Shown here: piece after piece, positions 35,369-37,497 of the stretch
Layout of the letters: each line of letters starts with the position of its first letter
Position numbering within the stretch: the stretch's first letter is position 1
Assembly (NCBI GenBank): GCA_003614675.1
Contig: ML002303.1
Span: 1 to 45,485 of the forward strand
DNA length: 45,485 bases
Reading direction: 5' to 3'
Source: Dimargaris cristalligena
Taxonomy: Eukaryota
Notes under the pieces: model-generated
The model's database searches: none
What the model saw: the letters and a program-made list of their open reading frames with translations, nothing else
Told to the model about the DNA's origin: nothing
Program-made: the position numbers and the translations under genes

Positions 35369-36255
35369 TGCTGTTTTTACATGGATGTGTTTCCCAGTCA
35401 AAAACAAAAAGGAGGGACATTTCAATAATATATTTTAAATATCTATAACAACTACATCACGGACATTATTTTGCCAATAAAAGAGTAAAAACGGAAGGAC
35501 ATCCGACAATGCCTTGGAAGTATGTAGTGGCGCCAATGTGATTTTAACTACACTATACCAAACTGTGTTAGTGAGATTTGACCGCCTATAGGTCACATTT
35601 TGAATCAATGGGCTTTAATCTCTTTTGTTGGAGAGGAGGTGCGTACTATCATTGATGTAATCAATACAGGCCCACTGCTTAAATATATTGGACACCATTC
35701 CTATTTGACTCAAGGTTAGGTAGATTGCATTCAAATGCACATTTATTCAATAGGAAAGCGATGCTACACTAGTCCTTAAAACCTTAAGGCATATGGCCTA
35801 AACCCTCCTCCATTGGGTTTCTTCCTGAGGATCGGCTGTGATGACTGGGGCGGACGTATCCCAAACACCCAAACGCAGGCCCGTCCCACGTTCTTAGGGG
35901 AGGCTGATGGCGCCATCTCGACTACACCCGATTCGCCTGTATATCTGCTAACCACTTGTTTACTGACAGACTGCCTCCGACAACAAAAACCAACACTGGA
36001 TCTCATTAACTTTACGCAAAAGAAGTCCGCAAATGATTGAAGGTTTCTTCTACCACTTCTAGTAAATTCAAGTATGACTATTATGATAAGTGTTTACTAT
36101 TTTATTTGGGATATATACAACAAAACATGTCAGGTAATAATAACACAATATCCGGCGTTTTCGAAACGATCTAAAGTGAAGAATGATAAGTAATAGGTAC
36201 TACAATTAGTCACTCTTCTACTTGCGATGAATCTCTAAAGATTCAAAAATAGTTA

Positions 36256-36320
36256 ATGCTCAGGGATTCAAGATTGCTCATCAAGTAGATCAGGTGAAAC
36301 ACGGAATCAAACATCATTGT
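36256..36320 (-). ncRNA. Box C/D snoRNA, guide for the LSU rRNA UUGAAACACGGA region (U18/snR18 region)
   Basis: Box C ATGATGT (36317-36311), guide TCCGTGTTTCA, D' CTGA (36293-36290), C' TGATGA (36283-36278), D CTGA (36263-36260). Lies in intron 3. Confidence 0.75.
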
Positions 36321-36510
36321 CATAGGATCATGAAGAGTTGAAATAACTGGATAAAAATGCTTACCTTATTAGTTACAAGAAAAACATCAAGAGATACCGA
36401 GAGTGGCCACACCAACTAAGCCTACCTATCAGTAAACAAAACATAATCAAAGCGACAACAGAATCGGTTAGATATATTCGTTTGACTAGACACAACCACC
36501 TCGCCAAAGT

Positions 36511-36597
36511 AATTGGCGATCAGAAAAGGTTTTTTGGTATAAGGTGTTATCTTCATGCTCACATCAGTAGCAGAACTGATTTATCATCATCTCAATT
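36511..36597 (-). ncRNA. snR61: Box C/D snoRNA snR61/U38 (SNORD38)-like
   Basis: Box C ATGATGA (36590-36584), guide CAGTTCTGCT(A) before D' CTGA (36567-36564), C' ATGAAGA, D CTGA (36523-36520), terminal stem AATTG/CAATT. The guide is antisense to LSU AGCAGAACUG, and the D+5 rule selects an A (yeast Am1133 equivalent). Lies in intron 2. Confidence 0.85.
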
Positions 36598-36842
36598 AGG
36601 TTGGTAAAAAAATAGTAACCCTGGACGCGGCACATACCTTTTCCGTATAACTGAACAAACGCAACCGGATAAAACAGTGAGTTATTCGAAAAATCTAAAT
36701 TGCGCAAAGCCAAGGTTCACGCACAGTCAGTGGATGGATAGTAAATGAGGGTTTTTTAGAGGGTTAGTGAAATCTGAGCAGCACCCAAAACAAATGGACT
36801 TGTTTATCAACCGGAATCGCCCAGTGGTACGATTGGTATAAT

Positions 36843-36965
36843 AGGATCAGTAACGAGGAATTTCATTGTGAAAGAGCAAAAGCCTTTACTCCTCAGCGGG
36901 CAAGTGCGAACGACAAATAGTCCCGTCGAACGCGAAACCCTAAGAAATAGTTTAACATCATGGAT
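36843..36965 (-). ncRNA. snR57: Box C/D snoRNA snR57-like
   Basis: Box C ATGATGT (36961-36955), D' CTGA (36896-36893), guide AATTCCTCGTT(A) before D CTGA (36850-36847). The guide is antisense to SSU AACGAGGAAUU, and the D+5 rule selects a G (yeast Gm1572 equivalent). Lies in intron 1. Confidence 0.75.
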
Positions 36966-37497
36966 ATGGCGGTCAAAAAAAACCTAGCAATCACCCACTA
37001 GAAGCTAGGACTGGAGCCTCTAAGCGAGAATGAACATAAAGGACAGGGAAGTGCTTACCTTTAATATATATTACATAGTAGTTGTAAGTGGGGTATTACT
37101 AAAATACGAGAGGGAATAGAGGACAAGATGAAGAATGAGTTGTATTGAAACGGGGAGTTCCACCGTCGCCTTTATAGTCTACCCCAACGACAGCGCGGCT
37201 AGTCCTCCCGACTTCCCCATGACGCTCCTCTGCCCGCAAGCCATCCCCCAAAAAAATAATCGAAGCCATAATGGGGCCAGGCTATTTTTTTTTCGTATAT
37301 TCTCGTAGTAGCGAAAAATATAAGCGATATAGATGGGGTCACGTGAATTAAATGGGGTTACCTAAATGGCGTGCACCATTTTACACACTGTTTCATACGT
37401 TCACTGCCAAACCAATGGCCCCCGTCAATTCACTCACCCAATTCGGCCACCAACTGAAGGGAGGGGTGGATCTTGACCTAGTAACACCCATCATCCA

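Follow-up and report, generated by a model that had tools for sequence, protein, structure and literature searches.

The stretch analysed here (hereafter, the window) is the 45,485-nt contig ML002303.1 of Dimargaris cristalligena, a mycoparasitic member of the Kickxellomycotina (Zoopagomycota). On its minus strand, a stretch of ~1.1 kb (37176–36085) has the anatomy of a non-coding host gene for small nucleolar RNAs (snoRNAs), with three predicted introns that each carry one box C/D cassette: snoRNA 1 with an snR57-type guide in intron 1, snoRNA 2 of the snR61 type in intron 2, and snoRNA 3 with a guide in the register of SNORD126 in intron 3. The elements listed in a first-pass annotation of the window, namely a 1.1-kb stretch free of open reading frames (ORFs) with a TATA box, three AAG/GT donors, branch sites, and a C/D cassette in each intron, were all found.

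The putative TATA box (TATAAA, 37171–37176) is the sole TATAAA on the minus strand of 37250–35950, and transcription would start ~25–30 nt downstream of it. Exon 1 of the non-coding host (37059–37150; 5' end approximate) ends at an AAG/GTAAGC donor. Intron 1 (36695–37058; 364 nt) contains the GTAAGC donor, a CACTAAC branch site with the branch A at 36763, and its first AG at 36695, and is followed by exon 2 (36638–36694; 57 nt), which is delimited by predicted splice sites. Intron 2 (36426–36637; 212 nt) contains a GTATGT donor, a TCTAAC branch site (branch A at 36468), and its first AG at 36426, with additional AGs at 36422 and 36416. Exon 3, also delimited by predicted splice sites, spans 36365–36425 (61 nt with the acceptor 36426). 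Intron 3 (36171–36364) contains a GTAAGC donor and a GACTAAT branch site (branch A at 36206), with the acceptor at either 36200 or 36171, and the last exon (36085–36170, or starting at 36199 if the acceptor is 36200; 3' end approximate) contains AATAAA at 36106–36101. The distance from the branch A to the acceptor is 68 nt in intron 1 and 42 nt in intron 2. For intron 3, the acceptor 36200 proposed in the first-pass annotation is indeed the first AG after the branch site, but no more than 6 nt separate it from the branch A and the sequence before it has 35% pyrimidines, whereas for the acceptor 36171 these values are 35 nt and 80%. Because of these pyrimidines, and of a spacing like those of introns 1 and 2 and of the aspartokinase intron described below, 36171 looks the more typical acceptor and 36200 is doubtful, with the choice between the two being ambiguous.

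Within 37250–35950 of the minus strand, the donor motif GTA[AT]G occurs exactly three times (37058, 36637, and 36364), each time preceded by AAG, and the C-box motif RTGATGH likewise exactly three times (36961, 36590, and 36317), once in each intron. Behind every donor the succession of elements is the same: a single C box, one CTGA motif or two, a CTAAY branch site, and then an AG. AAGGTAWG is found six times on the minus strand of the 45.5-kb window, three of them at the host locus, and is absent from the plus strand. SnoRNAs 2 and 3 begin 47 nt past their donors, and the ends of the D boxes are separated from the branch A by 52–84 nt in all three introns. These D box-to-branch distances represent the kind of snoRNA-to-splice-signal spacing described as important for the processing of intronic snoRNAs (PMC2780460). 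The stretch shows little coding capacity. No ATG-initiated ORF of at least 60 codons is present on either strand between 36007 and 37351, and the longest ATG ORFs in 36060–37176 encode 44 (minus strand) and 39 (plus strand) amino acids. In all seven exon models tried, which give a spliced RNA of 296–385 nt, the longest ATG ORF consists of 8 codons.

Complementarity of the cassettes to ribosomal RNA (rRNA) was examined using a ribosomal DNA (rDNA) sample of 108 eukaryotic stretches from metagenome contigs, which had been fetched with the NL4 primer and on two of which the rRNAs were mapped by Rfam; the locus counts given for each guide include only those loci that hold the 8-mer core of its site. 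A search of viral contigs with the NL4 primer gave no match. All three guides are perfect Watson–Crick complements of eukaryotic rDNA, in which the first paired base is the second one upstream of CTGA, with lengths of 11 nt (small subunit, SSU), 10 nt (large subunit, LSU), and 11 nt (LSU) for snoRNAs 1, 2, and 3, respectively, in agreement with the rRNA-antisense guides of 10–11 nt previously noted in each intron. Targets were assigned by the D+5 rule, in which the nucleotide to be methylated is paired with the fifth guide nucleotide upstream of box D or D' (PMC5199042).

SnoRNA 2 (36517–36595, minus strand) reached 59.2 bits with the Rfam family RF00476 (snosnR61; gathering score, 45), the alignment spanning model positions 1–85 of 85, and its earlier assignment to snR61 is confirmed at the level of the covariance model; it is a member of the snR61/Z1/Z11 (U38) type. 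The match to RF00476 (human U38) extends over the full model, including the guide and the conserved UACCAAAA element; as a difference, snoRNA 2 lacks eight model positions after the C box. Its two flanks pair in a terminal stem of 6 bp. The D' guide, CAGTTCTGCT, is directed to the 25S A equivalent to yeast Am1133, that is, the A of AGCA in AGCAGAACTG as the predicted target, and the 10-nt LSU complement is found in 33 of the 34 core-holding loci. Upstream of box D, TACCAAAAA serves as a further pairing element for the nine rRNA bases immediately 5' of the target, and together with the guide (both within 36524–36587) it covers 19 consecutive rRNA bases, the complete 19-nt run being present in 26 of the 34 loci. 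This additional pairing matches the kind described for yeast snR61, in which extra base-pairing is conserved (PMC3116282).

In SnoRNA 1 (36847–36961, minus strand; ~115 nt), which is snR57-like by function, the C box reads ATGATGT and the D box is the CTGA at 36850–36847; between them lie an internal CTGA at 36896 and a degenerate C' box. Its D guide, AATTCCTCGTT, is complementary over 11 nt to the 18S rRNA 3' domain, with the complement intact in 20 of 31 loci, and the D+5 rule places the predicted target at the G of AACG in AACGAGGAATT. Close to the 3' end of 18S lies a GTGAAC, the first A of which we take to be the very A that corresponds to yeast A1781; the predicted target G precedes this A by 209 nt in four loci and 211 nt in five (full range, 191–746 nt over 25 loci). 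In yeast 18S rRNA, Gm1572 and m6,2A1781 are also 209 nt apart, and m7G1575 (PMC5199042, table) requires a G 3 nt downstream of the target, where a G is indeed found. On the basis of the D+5 register, the 209-nt spacing, and the G at +3, the predicted target of snoRNA 1 is the snR57 site, the 18S G equivalent to yeast Gm1572. The snR57 label given to this cassette in the first-pass annotation thus holds for the site reached by the guide, whereas no box C/D family of Rfam matched the cassette. Between the C box and the internal CTGA lies a hairpin of ~40 nt (36897–36945, minus strand), consisting of GGGU ... GCCC and an inner CGACGG/UGUCG stem, the fold of which is no better than those of shuffled sequences. 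It is this internal hairpin that makes snoRNA 1 unusually long; yeast snR57 is presumably shorter. The guide region before the internal CTGA gave no rRNA match above noise, which fits the report that the conserved C'/D' motif of yeast snR57 has an inactive guide (PMC3116282). Thus, snoRNA 1 shares with yeast snR57 the predicted target reached through the D-box guide, a D' guide that has no target, and the neighbourhood of snR61, and differs from it in having no Rfam C/D match and in its length with the internal hairpin. Second targets were also sought for the unused guide regions, which in snoRNA 1 follow the C box and precede D' and in snoRNA 3 precede D; with G–U pairs tolerated, the best runs (10–13 nt) are within the range given by shuffled 20-mers (9–15 nt), and these candidates were rejected.

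In SnoRNA 3 (36255–36323, minus strand; ~69 nt), a C box (ATGATGT) and a D box (CTGA, 36263) enclose a D' box (CTGA, 36293) and a canonical C' box (TGATGA), and the RNA is closed by a terminal stem of 4 bp. Its D' guide, TCCGTGTTTCA, is an 11-nt complement to the 25S string TGAAACACGGA, which we take to be conserved in fungi from the general use of the NL4 primer, and the target predicted by the D+5 rule is the second A of TGAAACACGGA. The corresponding neighbourhood in yeast 25S rRNA contains m1A645, Am649, and Cm650 (PMC5199042, table). Since an A falls at position 645 only if A649 is the A following AAAC, the second A of TGAAACACGGA corresponds to yeast A646; the predicted target of snoRNA 3 would therefore be equivalent to human 28S Am1310/1323 and lie next to m1A645. 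The table in PMC5199042 gives no known methylation at yeast A646, and near the equivalent position in Neurospora PMC2780460 lists only Am635 (U18). In human 28S rRNA, SNORD126 pairs with Am1323 (Am1310; PMC9941101), a site that is methylated in differentiated cells and little or not in cell lines (PMC10939407).

Rfam scores of snoRNA 3 were all sub-threshold (SNORD36, 20.8 bits; SNORD126, 18.3 bits; snoU18, 16.3 bits), those for SNORD126 (E = 0.12 in a 111-nt scan) and snoU18 being below the respective gathering scores of 55 and 47 bits. In the Rfam alignments, the guide-to-D' spacing of snoRNA 3 is identical to that of the SNORD126 consensus, whereas three extra bases are needed to match snoU18. 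An equivalence to U18/SNORD18/snR18 was therefore rejected: the guide is 3 nt out of register and its target lies 3 nt upstream of the U18 site. The SNORD18 label of the first-pass annotation was right as to the rRNA stretch and wrong as to the site. In short, snoRNA 3 pairs with the same conserved 25S stretch as SNORD126 and U18/snR18 (yeast Am649/Cm650) and in the register of SNORD126, but it scores far below the gathering values, and the likeness to SNORD126 is one of register only. The guide of snoRNA 3 is the point of wider interest at this locus, as the methylation that it would direct lies beside a conserved m1A, is variable in humans, and is not known in yeast.

The chance occurrence of such cassettes was assessed with a scanner that requires a C box, a CTGA 50–135 nt further on, and a perfect rRNA complement of at least 10 nt ending 0–2 nt from the CTGA, using the rRNAs of one rDNA locus of the sample (L021). 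Across both strands of the whole window, the scanner returned three matches, all of them in the host locus. Among 200 block shuffles of the window, 171 gave no match, 27 gave one, 2 gave two, and none gave three (mean, ~0.16). Two guide-like matches of 11–12 nt elsewhere on the minus strand (32506 and 18352), located 2 nt before CTGA, have no C box and agree in number with chance; they are probably not snoRNAs.

In yeast, snR57 and snR61 belong to the snR57–snR55–snR61 cluster (cluster II), as the first-pass annotation had stated (PMC3596301). According to the same source, the cluster II snoRNAs are all intronic in Pezizomycotina, Basidiomycota, and Rhizopus oryzae, their spliced host RNAs are devoid of long ORFs, like mammalian U22HG, and 83 cluster introns have been verified by expressed sequence tags (EST) or by RT-PCR. 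In Neurospora, UHG-like hosts with alternative splicing have been identified for five clusters by RT-PCR (PMC2780460). The Dimargaris locus resembles fungal cluster II in having a host that is non-coding, consists of several exons, and holds a single box C/D snoRNA in every intron, in its canonical splice signals and its short, poorly coding exons, and in the association of snR61 with an snR57-type guide, the snR57 type coming first. It differs in that snR55 is absent from the window, snR61 occupies the middle position and not the last, and the third intron guides another 25S site. The order is thus snR57 type, snR61, and the SNORD126-register guide, so that two of the three cluster II members (snR57, snR55, and snR61) are represented. 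In the window, snR55 was found neither by Rfam (E up to 5) nor by either guide scanner; it may reside elsewhere in the genome. The view of the locus as an intron-encoded version of the snR57–snR55–snR61 cluster is accordingly borne out in regard to snR61 and the snR57-type guide, but with snR55 not found the locus is not a simple intronic copy. It is conceivable, if rather unlikely, that snoRNA 3 is a genuine fungal counterpart of vertebrate SNORD126, so that ribose methylation at A646/A1310/1323 would be an ancient feature of opisthokonts that Saccharomyces and Neurospora have lost, with the host gene keeping an early make-up of cluster II from before snR55 joined or after it was swapped out.

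The GAS5/UHG-type architecture invoked in the first-pass annotation is well matched by the sequence, which fits a non-coding multi-intron host with one C/D snoRNA per intron. Similarities to the mammalian UHG/GAS5 hosts are the location of the products in introns and a spliced RNA that has no ORF, whereas there is no sequence relation, the snoRNA set is another one, and the Dimargaris gene is far smaller (~1.1 kb, three introns). On the other hand, the arrangement can no longer be called hidden or new, as had been suggested, since intron-encoded clusters in UHG-like hosts have already been published (PMC3596301 and PMC2780460). This architecture is on record for most fungal groups; what is new here is the lineage and the variant make-up, a modest addition. 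The survey in PMC3596301 does not cover Kickxellomycotina or Zoopagomycota, with Rhizopus oryzae as its only zygomycete. Among the 15 papers on these fungi listed by our literature search, none contains the word snoRNA, and The fungal snoRNAome (PMC5824354) has no mention of Zoopag- or Kickxello- in its text. With this locus, a Zoopagomycota genome would gain three snoRNA genes together with a non-coding host gene that is missing from its annotation; the locus would also extend the picture of the snR57/snR61 cluster as an old one that is intronic outside the Saccharomyces group and varies in its make-up.

Altogether, it is most likely (with a probability of roughly 80%) that the locus is a minus-strand non-coding snoRNA host gene with three introns, each encoding one box C/D snoRNA. 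From its anatomy and from the published behaviour of cluster II elsewhere, we infer the following course of expression. RNA polymerase II would transcribe ~1.1 kb from the TATA promoter, and box C/D proteins would assemble on each intron. The spliceosome would remove the three introns, which would then be debranched and trimmed by exonucleases down to the box C/D small nucleolar ribonucleoproteins, while the spliced product of ~300–385 nt, which has no ORF, would be turned over as a disposable by-product. Of the resulting guides, snoRNA 1 would direct fibrillarin-type 2'-O-methylation to the 18S G equivalent to yeast Gm1572 (the function of snR57), snR61 (snoRNA 2) to the 25S A equivalent to Am1133, aided by the adjacent 9-nt pairing, and snoRNA 3 to the 25S A equivalent to yeast A646 and human 28S Am1310(1323).

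Several observations weigh against this assignment. The guide complementarity was assessed only on foreign eukaryotic rDNA from metagenomes. For snoRNA 3 the rDNA match is circular, because all 108 loci were fetched with the NL4 primer, which contains its target, and for snoRNA 1, 11 of the 31 core-holding loci deviate from a perfect 18S complement. When the C box is not required, rRNA complements of at least 10 nt beside any CTGA occur at chance level (5 in the window against 2–17 in 100 shuffles), so that the significance of the guides rests on the combination of signals and on their clustering, one per intron, within 700 nt. The covariance models recognize snR61 and neither of its neighbours: snoRNA 3 has no Rfam match at the gathering score, and no Rfam box C/D family was detected for snoRNA 1 at E values up to 10 in a 171-nt scan (36820–36990), although presumably an snR57 covariance model is present in Rfam. 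The sole match in that scan, Corona_pk3 (E = 1.6), was dismissed as chance. In addition, the C boxes of snoRNAs 1 and 3 end with T in place of A, snoRNA 1 has no obvious terminal stem, and the acceptor of intron 3 is ambiguous (36200 versus 36171). The predicted folds of the three snoRNAs are no better than those of shuffled sequences (z, –0.6 to –1.3), as is usual for box C/D snoRNAs.

The missing Rfam support for snoRNAs 1 and 3 and the frequency of chance guide matches beside CTGA would suit a locus in which only snR61 is genuine and the other two cassettes are chance combinations of motifs or decayed pseudogenes, as would the target of snoRNA 3, which is not known to be methylated in yeast (PMC5199042, table), nor listed for Neurospora. 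We consider this highly improbable, the least probable of the alternatives weighed here, because with the C box required just these three matches occur in the window against the shuffle average given above, and because every predicted intron holds a single cassette, placed at customary distances. SnoRNA 3 moreover possesses a perfect C' box (TGATGA), a D' box (CTGA), and a terminal stem, and the guide of snoRNA 1 falls exactly on the site of snR57, the known cluster partner of snR61. The ambiguity of the third acceptor would suit a locus in which the snoRNAs are real but not spliced out, being set free from a polycistronic precursor through the action of RNase III-type enzymes and exonucleases, as happens in Saccharomyces cerevisiae, with the splice-like signals being fortuitous or vestigial. 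Such processing is very unlikely here, given that three AAG/GTAWG donors occur within 700 nt (half of those on the minus strand of the window) where ~0.03 would be expected by composition-free odds, and that after each of them come, in this order, a snoRNA, a CTAAY branch site, and finally an AG, with the D box 52–84 nt from the branch. The genome also has introns, and the same signals are used in a protein-supported one; furthermore, these clusters are located wholly or largely in introns both in the single zygomycete examined and in every group outside Saccharomyces (PMC3596301).

The host could also be a protein-coding gene in which the snoRNA introns lie in the 5' untranslated region and the coding exons downstream, for example in an ORF of 76 amino acids (36006–35776, minus strand) or beyond. 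Many fungal snoRNAs are indeed located in introns of protein genes (PMC2780460), the 76-residue ATG ORF lies downstream on the same strand, and the 3' end of the transcript is approximate. However, AATAAA (36106–36101) precedes this ORF, neither it nor a further downstream ORF of 85 amino acids has a Pfam match (E up to 0.01), and the aspartokinase gene converges from 35009, leaving ~1 kb. The published spliced RNAs of cluster II are, moreover, non-coding (PMC3596301). A coding host is thus very unlikely, and a non-coding host with three snoRNA-bearing introns is the preferred reading of the locus.

The convergent neighbour of the host gene is an aspartokinase gene (33167–35009, plus strand), as identified by Pfam; its best database matches are from D. 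cristalligena (100% and 94% identity), followed by other Dimargaritales and Kickxellales. Of the two public D. cristalligena models, one (560 amino acids) is 100% identical to the long ORF, and the other (530 amino acids; 94% identical) starts four codons later; the model deposited for this contig probably differs in its start and internal structure. Both protein models support a first intron of ~157 nt (GTAAGT ... CTCTAAC ... AG), with the AG ~50 nt from the branch site, which shares its signals with the introns of the host gene. The six small ORFs flanking the host locus have no Pfam match. Just upstream of the host TATA box, the hexamer CCCCAT occurs four times within ~150 nt (minus strand, 37357, 37338, and 37276; plus strand, 37215), forming the densest 200-nt span in the window, which has 39 copies in total. 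The same region contains CACGTG at 37340, one of three in the window, and both motifs may represent promoter elements.

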